From sequence record OZ035805.1: a DNA stretch of 44,101 bases; one strand, written 5' to 3'. Within the stretch, counting starts at the first letter, position 1, and the number at the start of each line of letters is the position of its first letter. A model generated the notes under the pieces. It made no database searches, was not told the DNA's origin, and saw nothing but the letters and a program-made list of their open reading frames with translations. A program made the position numbers and the translations under genes. The DNA is from Kagunavirus BCH953P1. Below, in pieces: positions 2,760-40,990 of this stretch.

Positions 2760-2795
2760 GTTCACCTATAGCCCCGAAAGGGGCTTTCTTATAGT

Positions 2796-3872
2796 ATGCT
2801 ATTAACTTTAGCGCCACAGGGTTTATCTATGAGATTACTTACATCCCTAATCAGCCACCAGATTTGGCTGCAACGCACCGCATCGGGCGAAGTGAAAGAC
2901 CTTGCGCCTTTCATTAAGGAGATGCGGGACGAAATCAAACGGCAGGTGCTGCTGTTCGGTGACGATGGGCGTAGCACCGCGCGACTGAATAAACTGTTAC
3001 GCGACCTGGAAGAAGCACTGAGCGGACTTACGGGCGACTGGCAAACAAAGCTGACGGAAGACCTTAAGGAACTGGCGGAGTATGAAGCAGAGTGGAACGT
3101 AAAAACGCTGACGGCTAACGTTAACGCGGAATTTGTTACACCCGCCGCCGAGCAGGTGTGGTCCGCTGCCGAGTTTCAGCCTCTGTCGCTAAGCGACAAG
3201 CCTGTCGATTTCACCAAGCTGATGTCGGACTGGGGTGAAACGGAGGTTGCGCGCCTGGTAACTGGTGTTAAGATGGGTTTCGTACAAGGGCAAACCACAC
3301 GGCAGATTGTTAAGAATGTTGTAGGCGCTGGCGGACTGGCCGACATCTCAGAACGTAACGCAGCTACCGTAATCCGCACCGCGCTGTCGCACGTATCCAA
3401 CGAAGCCCGTAACGAGACGTACCGCCAGAACGACGACATCATCGAGAAATACGAATGGGTATCAACGCTGGACAGCCGTACCAGTACGATTTGCAGAGCC
3501 AGAGACGGAATGACGTGGGAAATCGGTAAAGGGCCGATGCCCCCCGCCCATCCGAACTGTCGATCGTGCACGGCACCGGTAATCAGTTCAGAGTTCGATT
3601 TCCTGGATAAAGGCGCGAAACGCGCAGCTAAGGGCGCAGAAGGTGGTACTCAGGTAAGCGCAGACACCACTTACTACGAGTTCCTGAAACAACAACCGGC
3701 ATGGTTTCAGGACCAGGCTCTCGGGCCAACCCGCGGTAAGATTTTCCGCAACAGCGGTATATCGCCGGAGGAGTTTCGCGTAATATCTGTAGATGGTTTC
3801 GGGAATCCGCTCACGCTTAAGCAGATGGCGGAACTCGATAAACGTGTTGCTGATTATCTGAAAGGGGAATAA
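2796..3872 (+). CDS. head morphogenesis protein (Mu F / SPP1 gp7-like)
   Basis: 358 aa; motif region WVSTLDSRTSTICRARDG...HPNCRC typical of F-like minor head proteins; start uncertain (hairpin 2770-2785 just upstream, alternative ATG 2829). Confidence 0.7.
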   Translation: MLLTLAPQGLSMRLLTSLISHQIWLQRTASGEVKDLAPFIKEMRDEIKRQVLLFGDDGRSTARLNKLLRDLEEALSGLTGDWQTKLTEDLKELAEYEAEWNVKTLTANVNAEFVTPAAEQVWSAAEFQPLSLSDKPVDFTKLMSDWGETEVARLVTGVKMGFVQGQTTRQIVKNVVGAGGLADISERNAATVIRTALSHVSNEARNETYRQNDDIIEKYEWVSTLDSRTSTICRARDGMTWEIGKGPMPPAHPNCRSCTAPVISSEFDFLDKGAKRAAKGAEGGTQVSADTTYYEFLKQQPAWFQDQALGPTRGKIFRNSGISPEEFRVISVDGFGNPLTLKQMAELDKRVADYLKGE

Positions 3873-3955
3873 TGATGGGCTTTTTCAAAGTAACTGATTC
3901 CTAAGGGTAGAGGCGGTAAGCAAGGCGGCGAAGGTTACTAAGCCAGAATGATATG

Positions 3956-3985
3956 AGGCCCCGTTAAGGGGCCTTAGTTTTATTT
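3956..3985 (+). terminator. rho-independent terminator
   Basis: stem AGGCCCC / GGGGCCT with 5-nt loop followed by TAGTTTTATTT. Confidence 0.6.
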
Positions 3986-4201
3986 AAAGAATATCGCGAA
4001 CTTCTTGTAACCCGCTGGCTCGTTGCGCTGACCATGTTCGATAGCAAAACGTTGAACGTTGTTAAAATCGTTCTCTTCCATACCGTCGGTGCAAAAGGTA
4101 AAAAAAAAGTTACGTTTGTTTCCGATAAGCACACGGCTCGCAACATCAATGCTGTAAAGTTCTTCGATAGCGCGTACCACGTTTGCAGTAGCTTTGTTCA
4201 T
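3980..4201 (-). CDS. hypothetical protein (antisense insertion in head module)
   Basis: 73 aa ORF opposite to flanking genes; AGGA SD 8 nt upstream; own upstream promoter repeat; contains T9 homopolymer encoding FFF. Confidence 0.5.
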   Translation of the reverse strand: MNKATANVVRAIEELYSIDVASRVLIGNKRNFFFTFCTDGMEENDFNNVQRFAIEHGQRNEPAGYKKFAIFFK

Positions 4202-4236
4202 TTCTAAATTCCTTATCTCTCGTTTCGATGTAATGA

Positions 4237-4265
4237 ATAGTACCCTATTATATTGGGGTGCGCAA
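4237..4265 (-). promoter_or_regulatory. promoter-like element TTGCGC-17-TACTAT with AATAG-N4-CTATT palindrome
   Basis: part of 32-bp exact repeat (4234-4265 = 13779-13810) placed about 35 bp upstream of minus-strand gene start at 4201. Confidence 0.45.
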
Positions 4266-4540
4266 ACTGTTTATTCACCTATTTCAGTTATTCCACTTGA
4301 TTGTAAATGTCGGAATAAACTATTCGAATAGTTGACTTTTCACTGAAAATATGATAAGCTCCACCTGAGCTTGTGAAGTATGAACAAGCGACCGCGGCGC
4401 GGGCAGGTAACGGAGCTGGACGTAAGTCCTGAGTGTAGTTACGCTGACGCGTTCGGAAGGGTCATACTATATTGCTTGTGTAAAAAGTAACTGGTTTACT
4501 GAGATTACGCCGTTTCTATGTTTAAATGATAAGGACTAGC

Positions 4541-4568
4541 GCCCCGCTTTACGGCGGGGCTTTACTTA
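4541..4568 (+). terminator. rho-independent terminator
   Basis: stem GCCCCGC / GCGGGGC, 6-nt loop, then TTTACTT; lies just upstream of the spanin RBS. Confidence 0.55.
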
Positions 4569-4584
4569 TCGAGAAAGGAGAAAC

Positions 4585-4971
4585 ATGAATCTTAAAGCAA
4601 CTGTCGTAGCAGGAGCATGTTTCATCGTCCTGGCTTACGCACACGGCATCTACCAGTATCGCAGCGGCTGGAACGAAGGCCGGGCGAATCTCGTTTCGCA
4701 GCAACAGCAGAAGGCGCAGGCTGAGTTAGCGAAGAAAACACAACGGCAGCAGCAGGACGAATCAAAGGCTGCCGCTGCTGACAACGAAGGCAAGACGAAA
4801 TCAGAGGTGATTACCCGTGAAGTCGTTAAGTACATTAAAACGCCTGGCCGCAGCGTGTGCACTTTTGACCCTGAGCGCGTGCAGCTCAAGTCCCGCGCCG
4901 TCGCAAACGCAAATTCCATCCCCGGATACGACGATGATGCAGCCACCGTGCAAACTGGCACCGCCAAGTAG
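4585..4971 (+). CDS. i-spanin (Rz-like)
   Basis: 128 aa; N-terminal TM segment (VVAGACFIVLAYAHGI) then Q/A/K-rich helical region; o-spanin gene begins inside its 3' end in another frame. Confidence 0.8.
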   Translation: MNLKATVVAGACFIVLAYAHGIYQYRSGWNEGRANLVSQQQQKAQAELAKKTQRQQQDESKAAAADNEGKTKSEVITREVVKYIKTPGRSVCTFDPERVQLKSRAVANANSIPGYDDDAATVQTGTAK

Positions 4972-13559: not shown

Positions 13560-13751
13560 TCACTTCTCGTTAACATTCGAGTTGCACGCCCAGATTAAAA
13601 TAAATACCCACGGCAGCAGAATCCAACCAAGAAACAGGTTGGCCATGAATATCGCTAACTTCGCTTTATGGTTACGGAAGTACGCAACCAGGAAAGGTGC
13701 GAAATAAGCGAGAAGTGCAAACAGAATTAAGGAAACCGGTAAACTTGACAT
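13560..13751 (-). CDS. small membrane protein
   Basis: 63 aa, two hydrophobic segments; ATG at 13751 preceded by AAGGGG SD (the track start at 13766 lacks an SD). Confidence 0.5.
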   Translation of the reverse strand: MSSLPVSLILFALLAYFAPFLVAYFRNHKAKLAIFMANLFLGWILLPWVFILIWACNSNVNEK

Positions 13752-13781
13752 TTTAAACCCCTTCATTGTTGGTGTAAGTGA

Positions 13782-13810
13782 ATAGTACCCTATTATATTG
13801 GGGTGCGCAA
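13782..13810 (-). promoter_or_regulatory. promoter-like element TTGCGC-17-TACTAT with AATAG-N4-CTATT palindrome
   Basis: second copy of the 32-bp exact repeat, upstream of the antisense four-gene operon. Confidence 0.45.
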
Positions 13811-23754: not shown

Positions 23755-25175
23755 TTCTTACCTCGTCTCTTCATGTAATTAAGCAATTCTTCCTGGACCG
23801 ATTTCTTCTCGTCCGTACGCGCGGCAACAACCTCATCCAGCGTGTCTTTAGCGACGATATGATAGAGGAACACCGGGCGCTCGTGGCCCGCCTGCTTCTG
23901 TCGTACTGGACCTATACGCTCGACAACCTGCAAATAGTGCTCAAGGTTCCAGCCTTGCGAAATAAACGCCAGATGATGGCCGCCGTCCTGTAAATTCAAA
24001 CCATGACCGGCTGACGCAGGGTGAACGCATAAGATTTCGATTTCCCCACGGTTCCACGCTTCCATCTGCTTATTACCCTTAGCACCTTTTGCGAACGCCT
24101 GCGCCTGCGGGAATCGCTTAAGGATGCGCTCAAGTTCGTGCTTGAACTGATAGGCGACCAGCAACGGCGCTCCCTGTAACTCCTCGACAATCGACTCCAG
24201 CGCATCAAGTTTCGTGTCGTGCACTTTCTCCCAGTCTTTGGTTGCTTCGCCATCCGGTCCTGATACATACACGGCACCGGATGCAATCTGCAGACACTTC
24301 GACGTCTTCGCTGCGGCGTTAGCCGCTTCAACTTCCCCGCTCTCCAGTTCTGCGAATAGCTTCTCCTCCATATCTATGTACGCCTGGCGCGCTTTCTTAG
24401 GCAGGTCTATTTCAACCGGTACAATAATTGGCGCTTCGCATCCAAACCACTCGGCAGCGTCAATCGTGAGACTAATGTCCTTCATCTTCTGGTGAATTTC
24501 ATTATCCGCACCCGGGCGGGCGTGGTACTCACGCGCCATCACCGACTTACCTTTCTGTACCGAGTTAAACCATCGGTCGGTGAACGCGGTGTATGAAGAA
24601 CCAAGTCGCTCGCCAGCGTCGATAAACCAGTTCTGCCCCCACAAGTCCTTGAGGCCGTTTGGCGACGGTGTACCGGTCAGGTTAATGAAGCGCTTAACCT
24701 TTCCAAATGCCACTTTGCTGAGCGCCTTAGCCCGCTTGCTCCCACCAGAACGGCTACGGAATGATTTCAGTTTCGTGCTTTCATCAGCAACGATAACCGT
24801 AAAAGGCCAGTCGTCTTTGCCGTAGTAGTCAATTAGCCACTCGATAACTTCGTAGTTAGTACACACCACGTTAGCGTCCGACTCCAGCGCCGCGATGCGG
24901 CGCTTCTCTGAACCGGTCGCATCGACGACACGTAGACAAGGGAAGTTCCATTTCTCTTGTTCTGCAGGCCATGTACCTGACGCAACACGTAAGGGGGCGA
25001 GGATTAACACACGGTCGTCGTCCGTAAGTTGCCCATTACGAAACAGGCGGTTTAGCACCCACATAGTAGAGGAGGTTTTACCCCCTCCCATGCCGCACCA
25101 GATATTACAGCGCGGATGTTGTAGCATGAACGAAGTCATGAGCTTCTGGTACTCTCGACGGATAAATTTAGACAT
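23751..25175 (-). CDS. SNF2/DEAD-like superfamily 2 helicase
   Basis: Walker A GMGGGKTS, DEST box (VIVADESTKLK), C-terminal helicase region; first ATG sits 2 nt after the methyltransferase stop (the longer ORF would overlap it). Confidence 0.8.
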   Translation of the reverse strand: MSKFIRREYQKLMTSFMLQHPRCNIWCGMGGGKTSSTMWVLNRLFRNGQLTDDDRVLILAPLRVASGTWPAEQEKWNFPCLRVVDATGSEKRRIAALESDANVVCTNYEVIEWLIDYYGKDDWPFTVIVADESTKLKSFRSRSGGSKRAKALSKVAFGKVKRFINLTGTPSPNGLKDLWGQNWFIDAGERLGSSYTAFTDRWFNSVQKGKSVMAREYHARPGADNEIHQKMKDISLTIDAAEWFGCEAPIIVPVEIDLPKKARQAYIDMEEKLFAELESGEVEAANAAAKTSKCLQIASGAVYVSGPDGEATKDWEKVHDTKLDALESIVEELQGAPLLVAYQFKHELERILKRFPQAQAFAKGAKGNKQMEAWNRGEIEILCVHPASAGHGLNLQDGGHHLAFISQGWNLEHYLQVVERIGPVRQKQAGHERPVFLYHIVAKDTLDEVVAARTDEKKSVQEELLNYMKRRGKK

Positions 25176-25851
25176 GATTAGCCCCGTAAACTGCTTTTGC
25201 GAAACCACGCGGAGTAAGGCTGCGGATTGTTTTTGTTCTGGCGCTCTTTCCGCCGAGTTTAGCCCAACCAGGGTTATCTCCACTACCCACGGCAACCTCG
25301 GCAACGTCGGGCATAACAAACCCATTTCCGGCCCACAGGCACGTCTTTTTAACATATGCATCTCGCGCCGGGATAACATCCGGGAACATTGGATGTGTGT
25401 CGTCTTCGGGTAAATAGCCGCCGTATTCGTACGGATTGAACGCGTAGTCAGGCTTACGCCATAAAGACGAAAGAACGCTAACCGGGTTCTCAATCATATA
25501 CGGTACGTTGTACTTTTTAGCCAGACGCGCAGCCACTTTGCATGTAATCACGGCCTCTACCTGAAACGTTGGGTTCCTTCTCCGCTTCGTTTCGAAATGG
25601 GCCGCGCCGCTAACGGCTAAATCTGTGCATGGGGGGAACGCGAAAATAATATCCGGCGCAACGTCGAAGTCGAATTTATTATCAATCCACGCGTTTATAT
25701 AGTGGATGTTCTCGTGTTCAACTTTTGCGCCCAATCGTGCATAGTCTCCGCGGTCGGCGCCATCGTAGTTGAAACAATAGCAAGTATGGCCTGCTTCCGC
25801 CCACGGCTGGGCCATAAGGCCCGAACCGTCAAACAATGACCAGACAATCAT
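25168..25851 (-). CDS. DNA methyltransferase-like (C5-cytosine type motifs), short
   Basis: 227 aa; LFDGSG (FxGxG), FPPCTD (PC motif) and IENP (ENV-like) in canonical order; unusually short. Confidence 0.5.
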   Translation of the reverse strand: MIVWSLFDGSGLMAQPWAEAGHTCYCFNYDGADRGDYARLGAKVEHENIHYINAWIDNKFDFDVAPDIIFAFPPCTDLAVSGAAHFETKRRRNPTFQVEAVITCKVAARLAKKYNVPYMIENPVSVLSSLWRKPDYAFNPYEYGGYLPEDDTHPMFPDVIPARDAYVKKTCLWAGNGFVMPDVAEVAVGSGDNPGWAKLGGKSARTKTIRSLTPRGFAKAVYGANHV

Positions 25852-26334: not shown

Positions 26335-26649
26335 TTATAATTCCTTATATTGTTGGGGTATGTGCTTACTATAATAGTCTGCTATTAGGGTGTCAACCTG
26401 TTTTATAGAGCCAACCACAAAAACATTTGCGCCGCGTTTGCGCATCCGCTCATGTTCTCGTAGCTGGTGCGGGTCTGGCTTCGTGTTTTCGTCTTTCTTA
26501 ACCTCGACAAACCATATGATGCCGCCGGGGAGCATTACCAGCAAGTCGGGGGCGCCGGAGCGCCCCTCGTAGGAAAGTTTACGAACGAGGCCCCCCAGGG
26601 CCTCGAATCGGTCTTTCGCGTATTTCTGTACGCGGCCCTCTTTAGTCAT
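26335..26649 (-). CDS. VRR-NUC domain nuclease
   Basis: 104 aa; GAPDLLV...WFVEVKK motif typical of VRR-NUC. Confidence 0.7.
   Translation of the reverse strand: MTKEGRVQKYAKDRFEALGGLVRKLSYEGRSGAPDLLVMLPGGIIWFVEVKKDENTKPDPHQLREHERMRKRGANVFVVGSIKQVDTLIADYYSKHIPQQYKEL
26366..26394 (-). promoter_or_regulatory. sigma70-type promoter TTGACA-17-TATAGT with AATAG-N4-CTATT palindrome
   Basis: -35 at 26389-26394 and -10 at 26366-26371 on minus strand; palindrome 26371-26384. Confidence 0.6.
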
Positions 26650-26798
26650 GGCCGCAGAGCCCAGGTTATAAACGCCCCACCGAGAACGGCAACGCCAACA
26701 AACTTAAAGAACAGGCCATAACAGAACATCGCAGCTATTCCAGCGCCGAGTAATAGTGCGAGCAGGGCTACTATCGTCCAAAATACAAGCATTGTCAT
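26646..26798 (-). CDS. small membrane protein
   Basis: 50 aa, two hydrophobic helices; GGGAGGGG SD; stop overlaps VRR-NUC start. Confidence 0.4.
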   Translation of the reverse strand: MTMLVFWTIVALLALLLGAGIAAMFCYGLFFKFVGVAVLGGAFITWALRP

Positions 26799-26880
26799 AA
26801 TATGCACCCCTCCCGTTTCGTATGCTCAATCCCGCATCGCGGACAGATTCGACAGTCTTCTTCATAGACCCAGTAAATTT

Positions 26881-27012
26881 TCACTCCAGCACCCACAGAT
26901 AAATTGCGATAAACATACCTAATACGGCGACCATCATGCCGTATTGACCCTCGTGACAGTAGACACCGGCGGCGAATCCCGCCAGTACCGCGATAATCAG
27001 TTTACTTAGCAT
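26881..27012 (-). CDS. small membrane protein
   Basis: 43 aa, two hydrophobic segments; start overlaps 3' end of polymerase gene. Confidence 0.35.
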   Translation of the reverse strand: MLSKLIIAVLAGFAAGVYCHEGQYGMMVAVLGMFIAIYLWVLE

Positions 27013-29203
27013 AACGCTTCATCTCCGCACCTTCTGCCACAAGAGGGAACCCCTCGGCCCAATCAGGTAATTCGCACATTAATTTCTCCAGTTCGGCCAC
27101 CGTGTACTCGGGGGTGTCCGGAGTTTCGCACACCAGTTCATCGTGTACAGAAAGCACGATGGGATACCCGCCACCCTCAACATTAATCATTGCATATGCG
27201 AGTAAATCACGGCACAGCGCCTGAACAATGTTTTCGCAGGCTTTTCCGCCGTGGGTATACAGGGTAGTCCATTGTCGGGTTAACTGGTTTTCACCCTGAT
27301 ACTTGATTCGCACATTCGTGTTTACCCGTCCGTCTTCGTCTGTTTCCTTTGTCACGCTAACTCCGATTCCCGGATACGAGAGGATGCGACCTGACGGCAA
27401 CTCCATACATAACCACCAACCGGGAACCTTCCTACCGGATGAATCAAATTCTACTGTTCTCCAGATTCGGATAGCGCGCTCGCCATTCTTGCGCAGATGT
27501 GCCCCCGCCCAAAATTCACGACCCGGATTTCTTACAGCGGCTAAAATACCGTCTTTGAGGTCGCGCCAGAACGCTACTGTTTCCGGGTGTGACTCGCGCC
27601 ACATACGCTTGATTGCGTCGCAGGTGCGCCACACTTTCTTGTCCAGAATATACGATGGTCGGTCATCCTTCTCACCTGGATGCGGGGGGCGCTTGGCTTC
27701 CTGAATACGCGCCCACTCATACCCACGTGCGGTAGCAGCCCATATGTGGTCAGGGAATGTACCGTCCATTGTTTTAGTCATCTCAATAAGGTCGAGGCCT
27801 AAGTTTTTGGCGAACGTAACGAACGCTCCTACACCCCCCTCATAGCCGAGGCCAAGCTCGCAGGCCTTGCCTATCTGTCTGATTTCCTTGAAGTTTTTCT
27901 TAATATCATCTGGGTCCATGCCGAACATCTTACCCGCGGTTACGCAGTAAATATCAAGGCCGGCGCGGAACGTATCGAGCGCGGTTTCTTCACCGGCCAG
28001 CCACGCTAAACCGCGACCTTCGACGTTAGAATAATCGGCAACAACAAACTTATGTCCTGCTTCCGGTATGATGCAGCTACGCACCGTCGATGCCGTCAGC
28101 TTGGCCACGTCGAAACGGCGGTGCGCGCGGCCTTTAAGTAGCGCAGAAATGCCTTTATCCAGTTCATCATCGTGATAGTACCCGCGCGCCAGGTTCTGCG
28201 GCTGGAAGCCTTTACCTGCCCATCGCAGAGTACGTTTTGCCCCGCCGTACTGTAAACACCCCCGACGGCGGTCGTCCGAAGAGCGGCCTAACAACAGCGG
28301 GTTATATTTCGTTGATGCGGTGGACGCGGCCCCGAGGCGCATTTCGATAATCGTGCGAGCGTCATCCGGTAAATCATCGTCAGCCAGCAGGTCGTTAAGC
28401 GTCGACTTCTGTGCGTTATGGATGCGGTGGGCAGGGGCCAGTTCGCGCAGAATCGGCAGGAAGTCTTTACCGGTTAGCGAGCCGCCGTATTTGCGCTGGG
28501 CTTCCTCCTGCAACTGCGCCTTGTGCTTCTCTACGGCTTCAATCGCGGCTTCCGCCAGTGCCACGTCAACCTTAAACCCGCGGTCGTTGATTAACTGGTC
28601 CAGTTCCAGTACGCGGTCCTCGAACTCGGAGTTCCCCCAACGCGGCAGCTTATGGAACACTTCTCGCATCGCGGTGATGTCGCTGACGGCGTACTTGATG
28701 AACAGCGCCCACTCATCAGGGTGTGTTTCGGCGGTGTAGCGGCGGATTTTGTAGTTCTTCGGCGTAGGTTTTGAGAAACGCTGAATCAGCGCCTTGCCGC
28801 GTTTATCTTTCGCGTTGTCTGCAGATACGCCCAGCACTTCGCATAATGCGTCAAGTGAACCAGGCAGCGCGTGACGAAACGCCAAAATCATCGTATCAAT
28901 GGTGTTACTGACCGGGATATCGAAGCCCCAGCAGTGTTTCATGATAAGGCGATCGAAAAGTCCACCGTTGTGCCACACCATCTTGATGCGGCTGTTTGGC
29001 TTAACCAGACGGCGTAACGCGCGGTGCAAATCGCCCGGCATGTCGCTGCCGTCGGTGCAATCCCATACCTGCACCGGCTCGTCGTCAAAAGCATAGGTAC
29101 AGATAAGCACTTCGGTAGTTGGGTGTTCAGCGTAGGCGTAGGAACCGACTTTCTTTAAATTGGCTTCGGAGAATGTTTCAAAGTCTAAGAACAGGTAACT
29201 CAT
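27002..29203 (-). CDS. DNA polymerase, family A, with 3'-5' exonuclease domain
   Basis: 733 aa; exo motif LFLDFETFS; pol motifs KEIRQIGKACELGLGYEGG and SVHDELVCE. Confidence 0.9.
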   Translation of the reverse strand: MSYLFLDFETFSEANLKKVGSYAYAEHPTTEVLICTYAFDDEPVQVWDCTDGSDMPGDLHRALRRLVKPNSRIKMVWHNGGLFDRLIMKHCWGFDIPVSNTIDTMILAFRHALPGSLDALCEVLGVSADNAKDKRGKALIQRFSKPTPKNYKIRRYTAETHPDEWALFIKYAVSDITAMREVFHKLPRWGNSEFEDRVLELDQLINDRGFKVDVALAEAAIEAVEKHKAQLQEEAQRKYGGSLTGKDFLPILRELAPAHRIHNAQKSTLNDLLADDDLPDDARTIIEMRLGAASTASTKYNPLLLGRSSDDRRRGCLQYGGAKRTLRWAGKGFQPQNLARGYYHDDELDKGISALLKGRAHRRFDVAKLTASTVRSCIIPEAGHKFVVADYSNVEGRGLAWLAGEETALDTFRAGLDIYCVTAGKMFGMDPDDIKKNFKEIRQIGKACELGLGYEGGVGAFVTFAKNLGLDLIEMTKTMDGTFPDHIWAATARGYEWARIQEAKRPPHPGEKDDRPSYILDKKVWRTCDAIKRMWRESHPETVAFWRDLKDGILAAVRNPGREFWAGAHLRKNGERAIRIWRTVEFDSSGRKVPGWWLCMELPSGRILSYPGIGVSVTKETDEDGRVNTNVRIKYQGENQLTRQWTTLYTHGGKACENIVQALCRDLLAYAMINVEGGGYPIVLSVHDELVCETPDTPEYTVAELEKLMCELPDWAEGFPLVAEGAEMKRYAK

Positions 29204-29262
29204 TATTTTCGACCCTTAGTAAAAAGGCCCAATGAAGGGCCTTAGTTAAATTGATTCGGATA

Positions 29263-29886
29263 TTAGCGGCGACGACGTTCGCGGCGCGGTGCTTCATCTT
29301 CGTCGTCTTCGAGGTCATCGACACTTGCAGCAACTTTAGAGCCACCGAACGCTTTACCTTCGCCTACGTATTTAATCGCCAGCAGGTTAACACCGAGAAC
29401 TTTGTATTTCTGGCTGAACCAAATTTCAACGCTTACGTTAGCGACGCAGCCGCTGTAAACCTGTTCACCTTCAATCTGTTCGCCGTCTACATTGAAGTCC
29501 TGCTCTACCTGAGTCTCGCCTTTTTTAGAGGTTACAATCAGCGGTTGTTTCTGTGCCTTCGCTTTGAAGTAGAAGCCTTCCGGGAAGTCTTCAAACGGAT
29601 TGTCGCGTTCGGCAATGTCTTTAATCGCACATTTATCCATGTGCTTACCTTCGCCGTAGTTGGACTTCATCCACTTCTCAGCGGCCGCTGCGCCTAATGC
29701 TTCTTCAACTACAGCGTAAACAGTGTCGTAGAGCGCGTCGATTTGAGCATGGTCAGACGGCAGGATAATCGTCGCGCTGTACTGGCCTTTAGTGATTGAG
29801 CCATCATCGTTTTCACGGTCTTTTTCGCGTTCGAATACGTTAACCCAAGCAGTGTTTACTTTACGCAGATTCAGTTTAATACCCAT
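29263..29886 (-). CDS. DUF2815-like protein (putative ssDNA-binding)
   Basis: 207 aa; N-terminal LRKVNTAWVNVFE pattern; adjacent to DUF2800-like and polymerase genes. Confidence 0.6.
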   Translation of the reverse strand: MGIKLNLRKVNTAWVNVFEREKDRENDDGSITKGQYSATIILPSDHAQIDALYDTVYAVVEEALGAAAAEKWMKSNYGEGKHMDKCAIKDIAERDNPFEDFPEGFYFKAKAQKQPLIVTSKKGETQVEQDFNVDGEQIEGEQVYSGCVANVSVEIWFSQKYKVLGVNLLAIKYVGEGKAFGGSKVAASVDDLEDDEDEAPRRERRRR

Positions 29887-29953
29887 CTTGATTTCTCGCT
29901 TTTCAGTTTATATTTCAAAGTTTACTCCGGGAGCTGCCCGGCCAGTGATTAGA

Positions 29954-29982
29954 ACTATAATAGCTAACTATTCAGGTGTCAA
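29954..29982 (-). promoter_or_regulatory. sigma70-type promoter TTGACA-17-TATAGT with AATAG-N4-CTATT palindrome
   Basis: -35 at 29977-29982 and -10 at 29954-29959 on minus strand; palindrome 29959-29972. Confidence 0.6.
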
Positions 29983-29986
29983 CACT

Positions 29987-30160
29987 TTATTTAAGTTTCT
30001 TCGGAGCTACCTTATAAATATAAGGCTGCACCGCCTCATGCTTTGAGTTCTTCTCTTGCGCAATTTTGTCGGCGTCGGCGCGTTTAGCGTGAACAGAAAC
30101 AATGTCAAGTTCCTGAATAGAGTATCGGCGGTGATACCGCGTGAGAATATAAACCATCAT
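29987..30160 (-). CDS. hypothetical small protein
   Basis: 57 aa from ATG at 30160; GGAGGA SD 6 nt upstream lies in the 3' end of the upstream gene; ATGA overlap. Confidence 0.45.
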   Translation of the reverse strand: MMVYILTRYHRRYSIQELDIVSVHAKRADADKIAQEKNSKHEAVQPYIYKVAPKKLK

Positions 30161-31398
30161 TCTAAATCCTCCTCTGTTACCTGATTCCACTCAGGCCGTT
30201 TGTCGTCTGCCGCGGCGACGCATGGCGCTCCCGGCTTGCGGGTAATGAAGTCTTTCAGTTCTTCTTCTGGTATTACTTTAACCGCTTCGGTAGGCGTCAT
30301 GAGCACTTCTTTAGTCAGCTTGTCGCCGTAGAGTTCTGCAACTTTCTCGGCGTCTTTCCACGCACGATTACCCGGCCGACCTTCAACCAGTTTGTACCCC
30401 GGCACTTTCTTACCGGAATGCAACGCGGCAGCCATAGCTTTCTCAACCTTGTCGATGTGCTGGCGCAACAACGGCAGCTTCTCATACTCGGCGACGAGTT
30501 GCTCTGGCGTCAATTCCAGCGCAAAGTCGTCCTCAAGTTCTTCCGCCAGTACCGCGTTAACGGTTTTTGTACGCGCGGCGCACTGTTCGGAGAACCGACA
30601 CCACTGGCAACCATCTACTGACGGCTTGAAGTCCGACGCTTTCAGGTTCTTCTTGCCACGGAAATACGCATCAAGAGCTAACAGCGCACGTTTCTGTGCA
30701 AACTTAGCGAACAGTTCCAGACCTTCAACCGAGATGCCCCACTCTGACGCACCGCCAGCATACGGCTGGAAGATGACAAGACGAACAACTGTGATGTTAT
30801 ATCGTCTCTTGAGTCGACGATAAACACCGAGAGCGTAGAGCATAAGCTGCTTGTTTTCTTTCGCTTCGACACGATGTCGCCCTGTTTTCAGGTCGCCGAT
30901 AATTAGCATATGCTCGTCGGTGTTCGCCAGTTCCTGTACGGCAACAAGGTCGGCGGTTCCGAACGTCTCGACACCTTCATAACCCGGATGCAACACCTCA
31001 GTAAGATTGACACGCATTTCCAGCTTGGCGTAAGTAGCGACGTCAATAATCGCCTTACAGTAGTCGGTGTACTTTCGCACCTGCTCAATCATGTCAGCCG
31101 TAATCAGCACCGCGCCTTTCATCGGGCTGATTAGCGCCTTAATCTGGCCTTTACCCTCATCCAGCACGTAAGCACCGACTTCGCGCTCTAACGGCAGTGC
31201 AGTGCCTTTTATGTACTGGTTTAAATGTACCTCAGCTATGGTGTGGCACGCTGTCCCCGTAACGGCGGATTTACCCGACGTGTTAGGAATATCTTTTTCA
31301 CAGGCCAGTGATGCAGCGCATGACAGCCATTTTTTAGCACCTGACGGTGACAACAGCGCGTGCACATCGTTATTGCCCCTGCGTTCTTTTAATTTCAT
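30157..31398 (-). CDS. DUF2800-like PD-(D/E)XK-type nuclease
   Basis: 413 aa; N-terminal HALLSPSGAKKWLSC pattern; genomic association with DUF2815-like and polymerase genes. Confidence 0.65.
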   Translation of the reverse strand: MKLKERRGNNDVHALLSPSGAKKWLSCAASLACEKDIPNTSGKSAVTGTACHTIAEVHLNQYIKGTALPLEREVGAYVLDEGKGQIKALISPMKGAVLITADMIEQVRKYTDYCKAIIDVATYAKLEMRVNLTEVLHPGYEGVETFGTADLVAVQELANTDEHMLIIGDLKTGRHRVEAKENKQLMLYALGVYRRLKRRYNITVVRLVIFQPYAGGASEWGISVEGLELFAKFAQKRALLALDAYFRGKKNLKASDFKPSVDGCQWCRFSEQCAARTKTVNAVLAEELEDDFALELTPEQLVAEYEKLPLLRQHIDKVEKAMAAALHSGKKVPGYKLVEGRPGNRAWKDAEKVAELYGDKLTKEVLMTPTEAVKVIPEEELKDFITRKPGAPCVAAADDKRPEWNQVTEEDLE

Positions 31399-31889
31399 CT
31401 TTTAACCCCATGATTTTTGTGGAACCCGTAAATCTCTTCTGCTTTCTTTCTAACGTTTACCGCATCGTCGAAGCTGTCGAAGTATCCTAAATGCTTCAAT
31501 ACCTTGTTTATTTTTATACTTGCCCGCCATCTACCGCGCCTACGGCACCATGAAACTCCGGTCACACCTGACGTATTTAGCGACGACATTCCAGAATTAC
31601 GCCGGTTTCCTAGACTGTCAACTTTACGAAGATTAGATATGCGATTATTCCTTCTGTCATGGTCTATATGGTCAATCTGGTCGCCGCTACTTAAAACATC
31701 ATTAGGATTACAAAGTTCCCATATAACACGGTGCACTTTATAGACCTTACCTAACACTTGTACCTGTTTATAGCCGTGAACATCATTCGACCCCGCCTCT
31801 TGGCCTACCTTTACCTTATCCGAAGGGCTTATCTTCCAAAATAATTTACCGGTATCAGGGTCATAGTCAAAAACTTCATGCCAATTCAT
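31395..31889 (-). CDS. HNH endonuclease with AP2-like domain (homing endonuclease-like)
   Basis: HNH-like DHIDHDRRNNRISNLR and AP2-like GVTGVSW...RWRASI segments; first ATG with GGGAG SD (the longer ORF starts with TTG). Confidence 0.65.
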   Translation of the reverse strand: MNWHEVFDYDPDTGKLFWKISPSDKVKVGQEAGSNDVHGYKQVQVLGKVYKVHRVIWELCNPNDVLSSGDQIDHIDHDRRNNRISNLRKVDSLGNRRNSGMSSLNTSGVTGVSWCRRRGRWRASIKINKVLKHLGYFDSFDDAVNVRKKAEEIYGFHKNHGVKR

Positions 31890-32158
31890 ACTCTGTTCTC
31901 CCACTGGTCGATTAAATGTCTGGTCCGGTGATGACAATGCATAGCCCAGCCATACATCGACTCGAAGACATAAAAGTCAGGCTTGGCGAATGTCGTGCGC
32001 TTAATCTGCGACAAGTGACGGCCTATATCTTTAGGCCGTGGCACTTTGCCTAAGTACGCCATCTCTTCCATCTGGTGCGCACCGGATGGCGCACGCAATA
32101 GCCATAGCGCCTCTGTGCTATCCCGCCGGTCTACGGCTCGGTAGAGTTGGTAAATCAT
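31886..32158 (-). CDS. hypothetical protein
   Basis: 90 aa; stop overlaps HNH start. Confidence 0.45.
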   Translation of the reverse strand: MIYQLYRAVDRRDSTEALWLLRAPSGAHQMEEMAYLGKVPRPKDIGRHLSQIKRTTFAKPDFYVFESMYGWAMHCHHRTRHLIDQWENRV

Positions 32159-32201
32159 AATTATGACCCCTCAGTTAAAGCGGCCCTAAGGCCGCCGATA
32201 A

Positions 32202-32672
32202 TTATTCTTCTTCGAAATACTTGTTCTTGATTGCCGTCAGGCGTTCCAGGTACTCGGCCAGGTCTTCGTCTTTAATCGCGGCAATCTTCATCTTCTTACC
32301 GGTGAACTCTTCCAGCAGTTCATCGGAATCGTCGCACGCGGCATCGCTTGGACCTTCGTTAATCGCATCGTCGATAGCCTGAATCTGGTCGCGCAGAGAC
32401 TGGTAATCAACCTCTTCTTTCTCTTCTTCCGGCTCTGGCGTAGATTCTTCAACTTTAGCTTTACGCTGCTTGCGTTTCGGCTTCTCTTCTTCCGCCGGTT
32501 TAGTGTCGACGATGTCTTCACCTTCGACCGGGATTTCTTTTGTTGCTTCTTTTGCATCAGTAGGCTCGATTGTTGCAGTTTCGGCAACGACAACTTGTTT
32601 CGCGCTATTCGCCGCAATCAGTTCATGGGCAACTACGAAACGTTCCAGTAATTTTAAGAATTGTTCTAACAT
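32202..32672 (-). CDS. highly acidic early protein
   Basis: 156 aa, roughly 30 percent D+E; first gene after a consensus promoter; GAGGAG SD. Confidence 0.6.
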   Translation of the reverse strand: MLEQFLKLLERFVVAHELIAANSAKQVVVAETATIEPTDAKEATKEIPVEGEDIVDTKPAEEEKPKRKQRKAKVEESTPEPEEEKEEVDYQSLRDQIQAIDDAINEGPSDAACDDSDELLEEFTGKKMKIAAIKDEDLAEYLERLTAIKNKYFEEE

Positions 32673-32703
32673 TTGTTTCTCTCCTCTCGTTTGGTATGGG
32701 CTA

Positions 32704-32733
32704 ACTATAATAGCGAACTATTCATGTTGTCAA
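32704..32733 (-). promoter_or_regulatory. sigma70-type promoter TTGACA-18-TATAGT with AATAG-N4-CTATT palindrome
   Basis: -35 at 32728-32733 and -10 at 32704-32709 on minus strand; palindrome 32709-32722; divergent from HTH gene. Confidence 0.55.
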
Positions 32734-32797
32734 TGGGCTTTTCTAAAATAATTAATATGGTACTATTCACATATCAACTGACTAAGGAGTAATTGAC

Positions 32798-33013
32798 ATG
32801 CAACCATCTGAACTAGGCATCCGTGTAGAACAACGCCGTAAAGAACTCGGTATCTCCCAGCGCCGTCTGGCTGTTCTGGCTGGCGTTTCACAGGGCGCGA
32901 TTAACCAGCTGGCACTTGGGGTAACTCAGGACGTCCGCCCGGCGACGCTGTTTAAACTGGCGGAAGTGCTGGAAGTAGACGCCAAGTGGCTGGCGTTCGG
33001 TGAAGGGGCTTAA
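32798..33013 (+). CDS. XRE/Cro-type HTH transcriptional regulator
   Basis: 71 aa; HTH GISQRRLAVLAGVSQGAINQL; AAGGAG SD; divergent from early promoter. Confidence 0.75.
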   Translation: MQPSELGIRVEQRRKELGISQRRLAVLAGVSQGAINQLALGVTQDVRPATLFKLAEVLEVDAKWLAFGEGA

Positions 33014-33030
33014 CGCCCCTTTCTTTTTAT
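33003..33030 (+). terminator. rho-independent terminator
   Basis: stem GGGGC / GCCCC with TTAAC loop followed by TTTCTTTTTAT; overlaps stop of HTH gene. Confidence 0.6.
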
Positions 33031-35636: not shown

Positions 35637-35870
35637 TTATTCCAGGTCTTCTAAAGTAGCGGCCATTCCGCGAACTTCAGCAACAGCACTATATTTCCCA
35701 CCAACATTTTTCACGACACCAGATTTAACCAGCACCTTCAACGACCCTTCAATAATGGCGGAACTATAGTACCTAAAATAACTACGGCGCAAGTCGATAA
35801 CGCTGCACGACCCTTTTTTACGTGTTAACGAAACGACTGCCGTGAATACGCGTGACTGGAACTCGGTCAT
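35637..35870 (-). CDS. hypothetical protein
   Basis: 77 aa; upstream of primase gene in same operon. Confidence 0.5.
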   Translation of the reverse strand: MTEFQSRVFTAVVSLTRKKGSCSVIDLRRSYFRYYSSAIIEGSLKVLVKSGVVKNVGGKYSAVAEVRGMAATLEDLE

Positions 35871-36037
35871 TTCACATTCTCCTTAATCCACGCTTCCACT
35901 TTCTCCGGGTCAAACGTACCCGGCTGACGGCGGCCCATAATGCGGATACAACAATCCGGGAACTTCCCGCTCTTTAGCCAGTTATTCAGTGTGCGACGAG
36001 TAACCCCGATACGCTCTGCAACCTCATTCTGTGTCAT
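35867..36037 (-). CDS. AlpA/excisionase-like HTH regulator
   Basis: 56 aa from first ATG; MTQNEVAERIGVTRRTLNNWLKSGKFP is an AlpA-type HTH; first gene of the leftward operon. Confidence 0.6.
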   Translation of the reverse strand: MTQNEVAERIGVTRRTLNNWLKSGKFPDCCIRIMGRRQPGTFDPEKVEAWIKENVK

Positions 36038-36098: not shown

Positions 36099-36375
36099 AC
36101 ATAATCGCACCTATTGACATTATGAAAATCTTCGTTTAAGGTGCTTCTATATCTTAGTTACTTTGATTCCTGTTCACCTTGTAAGAATGTTTAACCCGTG
36201 CGTCAAGCAAAGGGTTAAACACAGGCTTACTGAACACGAGAATTATCATAACTTTCCTTCCTTAGTATCTCCGGTTGCCCTGGGCAAGCTATATTCTCAT
36301 CAACGGCATATCTCTTAAGTATCTGATTTTCTTAATGTGCCGTAGATTCGCAACCGTAAAAATGTAACCCTTACC

Positions 36376-36403
36376 GGGCGGGCTTAAGGCCCGCCCTTTA
36401 GTT
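36376..36403 (+). terminator. terminator-like hairpin
   Basis: stem GGGCGGGC / GCCCGCCC with TTAAG loop followed by TTTAGTT, within a 450-bp intergenic region. Confidence 0.45.
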
Positions 36404-36468
36404 ACAAAGTAATAAGAATAAAGGCACGACCCTGCCTGAAGAATCACAACGGCAACGTAACTATTCTC

Positions 36469-36497
36469 TTGCACACCCCAACATAATAGGATACTAT
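36469..36497 (+). promoter_or_regulatory. promoter-like element TTGCAC-17-TACTAT with AATAG-N4-CTATT palindrome
   Basis: same architecture as repeats at 4237-4265 and 13782-13810; 35 nt upstream of gene start 36532. Confidence 0.5.
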
Positions 36498-36531
36498 TCA
36501 CTTATCGTAACGAGACAGAGGAGTGAGGGTT

Positions 36532-37245: not shown

Positions 37246-37446
37246 ATGAGCAAGTGGATTAAGTGTAGTGAGCGGATGCCGCGCTGCGAGCCGGGTAGGT
37301 GGTCAAAAGATGTTATTGCACTAAGTGATACTGGGGAGGTGTTTCGTCTGGCCTGTCAAGGTGAATACTGGCAAAGAACGTCAGCGTTCGTTGAATCAGG
37401 TTCAGAAAAAGTGGTTGCATGGATGCCGTTCCCTGATGAGGACTAA
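37246..37446 (+). CDS. DUF551-like protein
   Basis: 66 aa; WIKCSERMP...WMPFPD motif shared with ORF at 37597. Confidence 0.55.
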   Translation: MSKWIKCSERMPRCEPGRWSKDVIALSDTGEVFRLACQGEYWQRTSAFVESGSEKVVAWMPFPDED

Positions 37447-37449
37447 GTT

Positions 37450-37593
37450 ATGAGAGAAGCATTTGAACGGTGGGCCGTCATCGAGGGTCTGCCGGTCAAC
37501 AAGGGTTCAAAGAAAGAGTACCTGAACGTTAAGACCCGTCTCGCGTGGCGGGCGTGGAGAGCTGGTGTGCAAGCGGTTATGGACCGGGGGTGA
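37450..37593 (+). CDS. hypothetical small protein
   Basis: 47 aa ORF filling the gap between the two DUF551-like genes. Confidence 0.35.
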   Translation: MREAFERWAVIEGLPVNKGSKKEYLNVKTRLAWRAWRAGVQAVMDRG

Positions 37594-37596
37594 GAT

Positions 37597-37782
37597 ATGG
37601 GCGAGTGGATTAGGTGTAGTGAACGGATGCCGGAGCCTTATGAATACGTTCTTGTAACTGATTGTTTTGTTGGCTGTGAGGTTATGCGTGTTAATTCAGA
37701 TGGCTACTGGGGGCCCGCAAAGAGTTTATATCACGGTGATATCACCCACTGGATGCCATTACCGGAGCCGCCAGAAGCGTGA
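37597..37782 (+). CDS. DUF551-like protein (paralog)
   Basis: 61 aa; WIRCSERMP...WMPLPEPPE motif. Confidence 0.55.
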   Translation: MGEWIRCSERMPEPYEYVLVTDCFVGCEVMRVNSDGYWGPAKSLYHGDITHWMPLPEPPEA

Positions 37783-37949
37783 TGTTATATTGTAACAATA
37801 GCTTGGGATTTTACTGAGTGACTTACGCTGCTGTGCAGCAGCGTACAACTTTAACTTAGTGTCGTCAAAAGGTGACACTTTTCACCAAACGCAACAATCG
37901 AGGCGACTATTGCAGGAGATGCAACAATACAAACACCAATAAAATTTAC

Positions 37950-37978
37950 TTGCACACTGAGATAGAATAGGCTACTGT
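37950..37978 (+). promoter_or_regulatory. promoter-like element TTGCAC-17-TACTGT with AATAG-N4-CTGTT palindrome
   Basis: same architecture as 36469-36497 with one mismatch in the palindrome; upstream of ORF 38010. Confidence 0.45.
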
Positions 37979-38009
37979 TCATTTACACAAACGAGAGGAG
38001 AGATAGAAG

Positions 38010-38159
38010 ATGGTTACTTTGATGGTTATGGAGTTTGAAAACAGCGTAGCAACTTACCGTGAGATGACTATGGTGCAGGCGTATCACCTGGCATCAAACG
38101 GCAACTTCTACAAGGCTCAAATCATCAACGAGTTCGGGGTAATTGACTATGAATTTTAA
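38010..38159 (+). CDS. hypothetical small protein
   Basis: 49 aa; GAGAGGAGAG SD. Confidence 0.35.
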   Translation: MVTLMVMEFENSVATYREMTMVQAYHLASNGNFYKAQIINEFGVIDYEF

Positions 38160-38421
38160 CAGCTACACCGTTACCGTTGATTTTGAGGGGCTGGAGTTGC
38201 CCCTCCCCAACAACTACCGATATGTCACGCGCGACCGTAACGGGTTTATCCAGGGGTGGAGGAACAAACCGACAGATACTGAGTTCGGGATGTCGGGCGG
38301 CGAAGAGTTGCCGATTACTTTCGGGCATCAGAGTAGCAACGAAGAGCTTAAAACTGTGATTCGTAAGTATCGCCGCCGCGGTAACACTGGGCTTATAGCA
38401 ATAACAGGTGCTGTTGAATAG
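38149..38421 (+). CDS. hypothetical protein
   Basis: 90 aa from first ATG (track ORF starts with TTG at 38143). Confidence 0.5.
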   Translation: MNFNSYTVTVDFEGLELPLPNNYRYVTRDRNGFIQGWRNKPTDTEFGMSGGEELPITFGHQSSNEELKTVIRKYRRRGNTGLIAITGAVE

Positions 38422-40940: not shown

Positions 40941-40961
40941 TCTATTTTCTGCAATGACTAG

Positions 40962-40990
40962 TTGACTATTACTCTCACACCAATTATATT
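40962..40990 (+). promoter_or_regulatory. sigma70-type promoter TTGACT-17-TATATT
   Basis: hexamers at 40962-40967 and 40985-40990, 33 nt upstream of ORF 41024. Confidence 0.55.

Follow-up and report, generated by a model that had tools for sequence, protein, structure and literature searches.

What reads the palindrome AATAG-N4-CTATT, which is built into the three best promoter matches of Kagunavirus BCH953P1, and what does it do there? The DNA analysed here (sequence record OZ035805.1, 44,101 nucleotides (nt), referred to below as the window) is essentially the whole 44-kb genome of this Kagunavirus, a siphophage of the Guernseyvirinae, and many E. coli siphophages are 85-91% identical to it over a 7.2-kb query; relatives have been called strictly lytic, without an integrase (PMC9825357, among the papers describing them). 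It was compared with three whole genomes (Ent1, SE1 and Tsm2) and with 64 IMG/VR loci encoding relatives of the XRE protein described below, and regulators were sought by Pfam and PHROG scans of about 50 window open reading frames (ORFs) and in annotated relatives. The palindrome is probably the 14-bp operator of a 434-Cro-homologous helix-turn-helix (HTH) protein of the XRE type, encoded at 32798-33013, which would regulate itself and turn down most promoters of the phage.

Three minus-strand promoters of the form TTGACA-17/18-TATAGT, each holding the palindrome, had been proposed in the initial annotation of this DNA and are borne out by the sequence; they are called class A here. P1 (26396-26368, TTGACA-cccT-AATAGCAGACTATT-ATAGT, spacer 17 nt) has its -35 TTGACA at 26396-26391, its -10 TATAGT at 26373-26368 and its operator AATAGCAGACTATT at 26373-26386, and leads to the leftward ATG (26333) of a gene of 84 amino acids (aa), 35 nt past the -10. 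P2 (29982-29954, TTGACA-cctg-AATAGTTAGCTATT-ATAGT, spacer 17 nt) has its -35 TTGACA at 29982-29977, its -10 TATAGT at 29959-29954 and its operator AATAGTTAGCTATT at 29959-29972, and lies before an Enc34-type single-stranded DNA (ssDNA)-binding protein gene (29263-29886; ATG 29886, 68 nt past the -10), which is followed by the DNA polymerase gene. P3 (32733-32704, TTGACA-acatg-AATAGTTCGCTATT-ATAGT, spacer 18 nt) has its -35 TTGACA at 32733-32728, its -10 TATAGT at 32709-32704 and its operator, O1 (AATAGTTCGCTATT), at 32709-32722, and faces a 156-aa gene at 32202-32672 (ATG 32672, 32 nt past the -10) that is divergent from the XRE gene. The distances are the few tens of nt that had been described, and the genes behind the three promoters form the replication block (ssDNA-binding protein, DNA polymerase, nuclease and others). 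P2 and P3 are intergenic, while P1 and its operator are embedded in coding sequence, in the last 21 or so codons at the 3' end of the VRR-NUC nuclease ORF (26335-26649). The intervals given earlier for P2 and P3 (29954-29982 and 32704-32733) were exact and the first, 26366-26394, was off by 2 nt and is corrected to 26368-26396; the quoted centre bases (TCTG, CTAA and CGAA) are right in the plus-strand reading. The palindrome does adjoin the -10, as had been noted, but in fact overlaps it by one base, its last T doubling as the first T of TATAGT, and the dyad fills the spacer.

P1-P3 are the only 11/12 sigma-70 matches in the window and its three best. With near-consensus hexamers 17 +/- 1 bp apart, an ATG 32-68 nt downstream and conserved orthologous promoters, they are, judged by sequence, sigma-70 promoters. 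There are indeed three of them, yet that number is too low for the palindrome, which is carried by about ten sites. The initial annotation had proposed a motif search of the whole genome and of related phages, and in the window this adds three perfect sites and five with one mismatch. The six perfect palindromes start at 4236, 13781, 26373, 29959, 32709 and 36485, against 0.039 expected from base composition, and the one-mismatch sites start at 32754, 37966, 40957, 4327 and 2790, which makes 11 matches with at most one mismatch where 1.3 are expected and no shuffle attains 11. For the pattern AATAGNNNNCTATTATAGT with at most two mismatches there are seven matches against 0.04 expected (seven is attained in 0 of 100 shuffles). 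AATAG-N4-CTATT is the commonest 5-N-5 palindrome in the window, five of its six perfect copies are intergenic, and all ten main sites overlap the -35, the spacer or the -10 of a promoter facing a nearby start codon.

A second set of promoters, class B, has the pattern TTGCRC-N10-AATAGrrTACTATT at 4236 and 13781 (minus strand) and at 36485, 37966 and 32754 (plus strand), the central TA being conserved because it is part of the -10 TACTAT. The promoter at 4236..4265 (minus) has its -35 TTGCGC at 4265-4260, a 17-nt spacer and its -10 TACTAT (4242-4237) inside the perfect operator AATAGGGTACTATT (4236-4249), and its target is a 73-aa gene at 3980-4201 (PHROG 'internal head protein'). Similarly, the promoter at 13781..13810 (minus; -35 TTGCGC 13810-13805), with its -10 TACTAT (13787-13782) inside the operator at 13781-13794, serves a superinfection-immunity (Imm) gene at 13560-13766, with an ortholog in Ent1. 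On the plus strand, the promoter at 36469..36498 (-35 TTGCAC 36469-36474; -10 TACTAT 36492-36497 inside the operator AATAGGATACTATT, 36485-36498) leads into a rightward operon of small genes from 36532, with orthologs in Ent1 and Tsm2, and that at 37950..37979 (-35 TTGCAC, -10 TACTGT) holds the operator-like AATAGGCTACTGTT (37966-37979, one mismatch) before genes from 38010. In class D, also on the plus strand, the dyad lies over the -35 instead: at 40957..40990 the -35 TTGACT (40962-40967) falls within the operator-like ACTAGTTGACTATT (40957-40970, one mismatch), with the -10 TATATT at 40985-40990 and a rightward operon of small genes from 41024 as the target, and at 4327..4360 the -35 TTGACT falls within the operator-like AATAGTTGACTTTT (4327-4340, one mismatch), with the -10 TAAGCT at 4355-4360, in a promoter that leads toward the spanin and structural genes and whose equivalent in phage fBC-Eco01 is listed as host promoter HP1 (PMC9825357). 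The site TATAGTATGCTATT at 2790..2803 (plus, one mismatch), just past a terminator at 2770-2785 and without a convincing -35, is a possible weak one, and the PHIRE table of phage VB_EcoS-Golestan has its equivalent (PMC7203180 Table S4). In relatives a further arrangement occurs, where a -10 TATTAT or TATTGT overlaps the dyad by 4 nt (Ent1 imm, SE1, L048 and L050). The dyad thus takes four registers in all, reaching into the -10 by 1, 4 or 7 nt or covering the -35, which argues for an independent binding protein and not for a fixed polymerase contact.

The best candidate for that protein is encoded beside P3. The XRE HTH protein (32798-33013, plus strand, 71 aa) scores 47.2 bits against Pfam HTH_3 (cut-off 23), and its best sequence match in the PDB is the Cro protein of phage 434 (71 aa; E 5.4e-7, 63 of 71 residues aligned). 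Its AF2 (AlphaFold2) model, a monomer from a single sequence, has five helices (pLDDT 84), and the top Foldseek match of this model is 2cro (TM 0.73/0.79, 40% identity), with 3cro and 1pra also high and the 434 repressor, HipB, SinR and C-proteins among the matches that follow. The glutamine that starts helix 3 (Q32, aligned with Q28 of 434 Cro) is invariant in four clade representatives and further sequences, and the helix-3 residues after it differ from those of 434 Cro, as is expected for a protein predicted to read a different half-site. XRE homologs are present in every clade bearing such dyads, and XRE is the sole recognisable regulator common to all clades; in the window ORFs and annotated relatives, the only recognisable regulators are XRE and an AlpA-like HTH_17 protein.

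The Kagunavirus XRE gene is a single-gene unit that ends in a two-way terminator (33002-33022). Its own promoter is an extended -10 (TGg-TACTAT, 32758-32766, plus strand) with a poor -35, and over it lies a second operator, O2 (AATATGGTACTATT, 32754..32767, plus strand), which has 9 of the 10 specified bases; the site is included in Table S4 of the Golestan paper (PMC7203180). The perfect O1 and O2 thus lie between the XRE gene and the divergent gene at 32202-32672, their centres 45 bp apart. An HTH_3 domain, a five-helix fold, a 14-bp dyad with a free centre and an overlap with promoters, the regulator's own included, are among the marks of a repressor-operator pair of the 434 Cro/XRE type, and these are found here. 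The initial annotation had named XRE as one of two candidate binders, and its homology to 434 Cro, its presence in every clade and the two sites by its own promoter favour this choice. From the computed sites, statistics, conservation, promoter overlap, homology and clade distribution we infer that XRE is probably the binder, that it represses, and when it does so.

Conservation points in the same direction. Kagunavirus, Jerseyvirus and Serratia phage Tsm2 retain the sites at matching positions. Almost all Kagunavirus and Jerseyvirus loci have AATAG-N4-CTATT as their leading palindrome, with 2-6 perfect copies per <=20 kb; all of them contain orthologs of P1-P3, and Tsm2 contains those of P1 and P2. 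In 134 distinct class A sequences, each of the ten half-site positions holds about 2 bits as against about 0 for three central positions, and the -35 is less conserved than the dyad; the same pattern, with half-sites at about 2 bits and three central positions at about 0, is seen in 52 distinct class B sequences. Among P1 orthologs (30 Kagunavirus and 12 Jerseyvirus instances) the half-sites are near-invariant, three of the 30 Kagunavirus instances having a one-base change, while the centre, here in coding sequence, occurs in eleven variants, including CGAA, CAGA, CGAG, CGGA, CTAG, CGGG, CACA and CAAA. The per-ortholog tables give the same half-site and centre pattern for P3 (36 orthologous Kagunavirus instances). 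The one-mismatch O2 is present in all Kagunavirus loci examined, and nearly all of them carry the class D site at 40957 with a single mismatch, two loci having two; in Jerseyvirus this site has one mismatch in the opposite half (AATAGTTGACTAGT). In IMG/VR (2.9 million contigs), the class A pattern with a 17-nt spacer matched 46 stretches only, and most of these contigs had also been recovered via the XRE protein, the few others being 41-45 kb long or fragments; among viral contigs, the class A pattern appears specific to this phage group.

In more distant clades, the promoter scaffolds are kept and other 14-mers stand at the same places. Locus L048, with an XRE identity of 44% and helix 3 TQGGIGH, carries AATAC-N4-GTATT, including two copies just upstream of its own XRE gene, so that the two-site layout is repeated with its own dyad. 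L056 and L060 (XRE identity 48%, helix 3 SQGYISH) carry TTAGC-N2-GCTAA, in three perfect copies each and as the top palindrome there; their ssDNA-binding-gene promoter reads TTGACT-ctac-TTTAGCGAGCTAAT-ATAGT, and a near-copy lies in the XRE promoter region. L050-52 (XRE identity about 38%) have a mixed AATA[CGT]...[CG]TATT, and the SE1 group (about 41%, helix 3 TQSAISH) has the degenerate ATTAGTTTAGTATT. A fixed position with a changing sequence is as predicted for a specificity determinant encoded by the phage. Half-sites that are fixed around a free centre, the four registers and these clade swaps bear out the earlier view that the conserved palindrome is an operator and not a product of chance, with its binding by a protein being a prediction from sequence.

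Beside the swapped dyads, the -35 region AAAGTGCTTGCA is nearly identical in L002, L003, L048, L050 and L056 at the promoter divergent from XRE, though the adjoining operator changes; this near-identity spans all non-Kagunavirus clades, and a TTGCA-type -35 is the rule in class B promoters. The setting of the regulator gene also varies. In L003 (SE1), L004 (Tsm2) and L048-L056 the XRE homolog is on the primase/helicase strand, just upstream of the primase/helicase gene, and in Kagunavirus and Jerseyvirus the AlpA-like gene heads the primase/helicase operon, with XRE as a separate unit on the opposite strand.

If XRE is the reader of the palindrome, a dimer lying across the -35, or across the spacer and -10, would keep RNA polymerase off and so act as a repressor, and on its 14-bp sites it would block the host enzyme at about ten sigma-70 promoters. 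The weak extended -10 promoter of the XRE gene, from which the protein would be produced, bears the one-mismatch and presumably lower-affinity O2, and these two properties would let the protein accumulate after infection, throttle the strong promoters and then limit itself. It would turn down P1-P3, the rightward small-gene operons, the imm gene and the internal-head-protein gene, and finally its own synthesis. The promoter of the AlpA-like/primase operon (TTGATT-N17-TATACT, 36098-36070, minus strand) and the opposing promoter (TTGACA-N17-TAAGGT, 36114-36142, plus strand) are without a dyad, and these operator-free promoters would drive unregulated, first-expressed units. XRE would then damp early transcription as Cro does, in a phage where no CI can be recognised.

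Several points weigh against this assignment. The XRE proteins of Kagunavirus and Jerseyvirus are only about 51% identical and differ in helix 3 (SQGAINQ vs SQSLITH), yet their operator is identical, and it is because XRE diverges between genera sharing an operator that the assignment is probable rather than proven. Conversely, helix 3 of the SE1 group (TQSAISH) is similar, yet the sites there are degenerate. The covariation of helix 3 with the half-site is only partly informative, as Kagunavirus, Jerseyvirus and Tsm2 differ in helix 3 and share the site. Repression of almost every promoter, including one toward the structural genes, needs graded affinities; the XRE model is of moderate confidence; and a literature search returned no binding, footprint, transcription-start or mutant data for this group. 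Neither a functional study of the repressor nor a map of transcription starts in this subfamily came up in that search, and a query by raw sequence strings gave unrelated papers only. Finally, Kagunavirus and Jerseyvirus, which share the palindrome, have AlpA-like proteins that are about 87% identical (71-100% between loci), as against the 51% of XRE.

This last comparison is an argument for a second reading, namely that the palindrome is an operator for another phage protein, either the AlpA-like HTH_17 protein (35867-36037), the other binder named in the initial annotation, or an unrecognised small early protein, and that XRE binds elsewhere. The AlpA-like gene heads an operon with an operator-free promoter, as expected of a first-expressed regulator, and it is missing from the SE1 group, which is without good palindromes. 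Temporal RNA-seq of the related phage K1B4, of coarse resolution and without start-site data, has an HTH gene among four early genes, which could not be mapped onto the AlpA-like gene or the window (PMC12645636). The distribution of the AlpA-like gene does not follow that of the dyads, however: it is missing from Tsm2, whose orthologous promoters bear AATAG-N4-CTATT, from the Kagunavirus locus L024, where perfect operators remain, and from L048 and L056/L060, which carry analogous dyads. With co-occurrence failing in Tsm2 and L024, an AlpA/Xis (HTH_17) site was rejected, and the AlpA-like protein is disfavoured as a binder. HTH_17/Xis-type proteins are, moreover, small monomers that usually bind direct repeats and not 14-bp dyads, which also counts against it. 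Pfam scans of about 40 small ORFs gave no other regulator domain. Altogether, we regard another phage protein as an unlikely binder. A spacer activator of the MerR type was also considered and rejected, as the spacers are 17-18 bp and not 19-20, and the HTH_17 protein has 56 residues and no coiled coil. In L024, at 3624-4209, two ORFs without Pfam matches, one of 149 aa and a Cys-rich one of 47 aa, stand in place of the AlpA-like gene and a 77-aa gene, and the XRE of this locus is 97% identical.

The motif itself has been published before, as PHIRE output. In VB_EcoS-Golestan, seven PHIRE 'conserved promoter sequences' have the same motif at the same genome positions (PMC7203180 Table S4), and in fBC-Eco01 seven PHIRE 'phage RNAP promoters', with the consensus tgAATAGTa-ccTATTat-T, stand at the same positions (PMC9825357 Table S2). 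These papers treat the motif as a directional promoter, without its dyad symmetry, its overlap with sigma-70 promoters or a link to the Cro-like gene, and two of the three class A sites (P1-P3) are not in their PHIRE lists; the motif is thus already published, and the wiring is new. The view that these annotations imply, in which the motif is an intrinsic phage-specific promoter element for a phage RNA polymerase or a phage-modified host enzyme, can point to the right half-site, which overlaps -10-like hexamers (TACTAT, TATTAT and T-ATAGT) and part of whose conservation could reflect promoter function, and to the ssDNA-binding-gene promoter of the SE1 group, which keeps only the promoter-proximal half CTATT. 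The promoter-distal half-site is, however, conserved as well as the proximal one, and in class A the sigma-70 hexamers are already those of the consensus. A polymerase contact would be expected to keep one position, whereas the dyad stands in at least four registers relative to the -10 or -35 and is itself symmetric. The attribution to a phage polymerase is also unsupported because neither the scanned window ORFs nor the annotated relatives show a gene or domain for one. A promoter for a phage RNA polymerase was rejected on the missing gene and the variable register, and we consider this reading a little less likely still than that of another phage binder.

A host protein would explain why the same palindrome is found in phages of Escherichia, Salmonella and Serratia despite XRE divergence to 42-51% identity, and the phage would then sense the state of its host through an enterobacterial DNA-binding protein that reads AATAG-N4-CTATT. 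Against this, SE1-group Salmonella phages share the host genus of Jerseyvirus, and yet they are without the palindrome or have other sequences at the same promoters; a difference between Salmonella phages of two clades is not what a host factor would give, and on these clade-specific dyads within one host genus it was rejected. The apparent restriction of the class A pattern to this phage group among IMG/VR viral contigs is a further objection, we know of no enterobacterial regulator with this consensus, and a host reader is accordingly very improbable. Weakest of all is the idea of a DNA or RNA hairpin, or of a chance by-product of AT-rich promoter sequence, which is scarcely credible although the palindromes are AT-rich and overlap -10-like hexamers, as the 14-mers have hairpin energies of only -0.3 to -1.8 kcal/mol (ViennaRNA, on which a hairpin or cruciform was rejected), lie upstream of the expected transcription starts, occur in numbers reached by no shuffle and are conserved across genera.

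The preferred reading, an XRE repressor on its operators, can be set beside known systems, of which phage 434 is the nearest. The operators of 434 Cro and repressor are 14-bp ACAA-N6-TTGT dyads in which the outer 4-5 bp are contacted. The window operator, likewise 14 bp long and overlapping promoters, is a dyad whose outer 4-5 bp are conserved and whose centre is free; XRE has the same length as 434 Cro (71 aa), aligns with it over almost its whole length and has it as the best PDB match by both sequence and fold; and in both phages two sites lie between divergent promoters, one of which is the regulator gene's own. The differences are that the half-site is AATA(G) and not ACAA, that helix 3 is Q-G-A-I-N-Q in XRE and Q-Q-S-I-Q-L in 434 Cro, alike only in the first Gln, that the window operators are spread over about ten promoters genome-wide and not gathered in one immunity region, and that the window phage is virulent, without a CI partner, integrase or lysogeny module found. 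In its proposed role XRE would resemble lambda and P22 Cro, being a small repressor that acts as a dimer, is produced early and holds down the early promoters as well as its own synthesis, although lambda Cro has a different fold and 17-bp operators, the P22 operators are of 18 bp, and both proteins act at two operator clusters only. Other likenesses are to the C proteins (C.AhdI and C.BclI), SinR and HipB, which are XRE-fold dimers on short dyads over their own promoters and are among the fold matches. Their sequence similarity to XRE is weaker than that of 434 Cro, and C-boxes are paired dyads that form an activation-then-repression switch at one promoter, whereas there is no sign of activation in the window. 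XRE would thus function as Cro does, yet outside any CI-Cro switch, because a CI with a cleavable C-terminal domain and lysogeny functions (integrase, excision/lysogeny module) were not found in the scanned ORFs or annotated relatives.

It is possible, as a tentative extension, that the strictly lytic Guernseyvirinae keep a 'Cro-only' remnant of immunity as a genome-wide governor, whose specificity has diversified (AATAG, AATAC and TTAGC) on fixed promoter scaffolds. If true, this would imply either that these phages descend from temperate ancestors or that selection has favoured regulatory specificities incompatible with one another in virulent phages that co-infect, the latter being a lytic-phage analogue of heteroimmunity. 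To specialists the mechanism is unsurprising, an ordinary Cro-type circuit, with the clade-specific operator swaps as a small evolutionary curiosity. Kagunavirus and Jerseyvirus phages are often isolated for therapy and biocontrol, and their transcription programme is essentially unstudied; such phages are also in use as synthetic-biology chassis (PMC11990801). What is offered here is a wiring diagram of one Cro-like protein, about ten operators, three strong consensus promoters and one operator-free promoter pair, and it corrects a paper in which the motif was assigned to a phage RNA polymerase. The circuit would account for the recurrent 'repressor' annotation in 'lytic' phages of the group, a matter relevant to safety screening, and its operators and promoters would be useful parts for engineering these phages.

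Around the operators, some additional half-sites may be auxiliary contacts: an everted CTATTcgAATAG at 4320-4331 (CTATT-cg-AATAG) abuts the 4327 site, and a lone ACTATTC at 36460-36466 lies 33 nt upstream of an identical half-site in the 36485 operator. After the promoter at 4332-4360 (TTGACT-N17-TAAGCT) come about 180 nt of leader and then an intrinsic terminator (4541-4560), directly before the spanin and structural genes at 4585. This layout (4332-4584) is reminiscent of lambda PR'-tR', a hint that the late genes may be under antitermination control; a Q-like protein was not identified.

Between the divergent early operons there are about 340 nt without a convincing ORF (36143-36480). The operator-free promoter at 36114-36142 is strong and leads into this region, a strong hairpin terminator (36376-36396) lies within it, and unannotated gaps are found at the equivalent place in relatives (L001 15543-16022; Ent1 37359-38359). 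A scan against Rfam by E-value gave nothing meaningful for the region, which may encode a small RNA or serve as a replication origin.

The replication block is interrupted by an HNH_3 endonuclease gene with a weak AP2-like stretch (31395-31937) and by a gene with a weak C-5 cytosine methylase match (25168-25851), both typical mobile or accessory inserts that differ among relatives. Just downstream of P2, the 5' leader of the Enc34-type ssDNA-binding protein gene holds a hairpin, CCGGG-cagct-CCCGG (29927-29941, minus strand), which is present in every clade examined, with two base pairs kept by two-sided changes in L056/L060, and may be a site of translational self-regulation or of RNA stability. 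Lastly, the heptamer AACGAGA stands about 6-13 nt past the -10 of five operator promoters, just 5' of the Shine-Dalgarno sequence (4218, 32685, 36509, 37990 and 41003); it is not enriched genome-wide (10 vs 5.9 expected), yet its position is striking, and it occurs also in SE1 and Tsm2 leaders.

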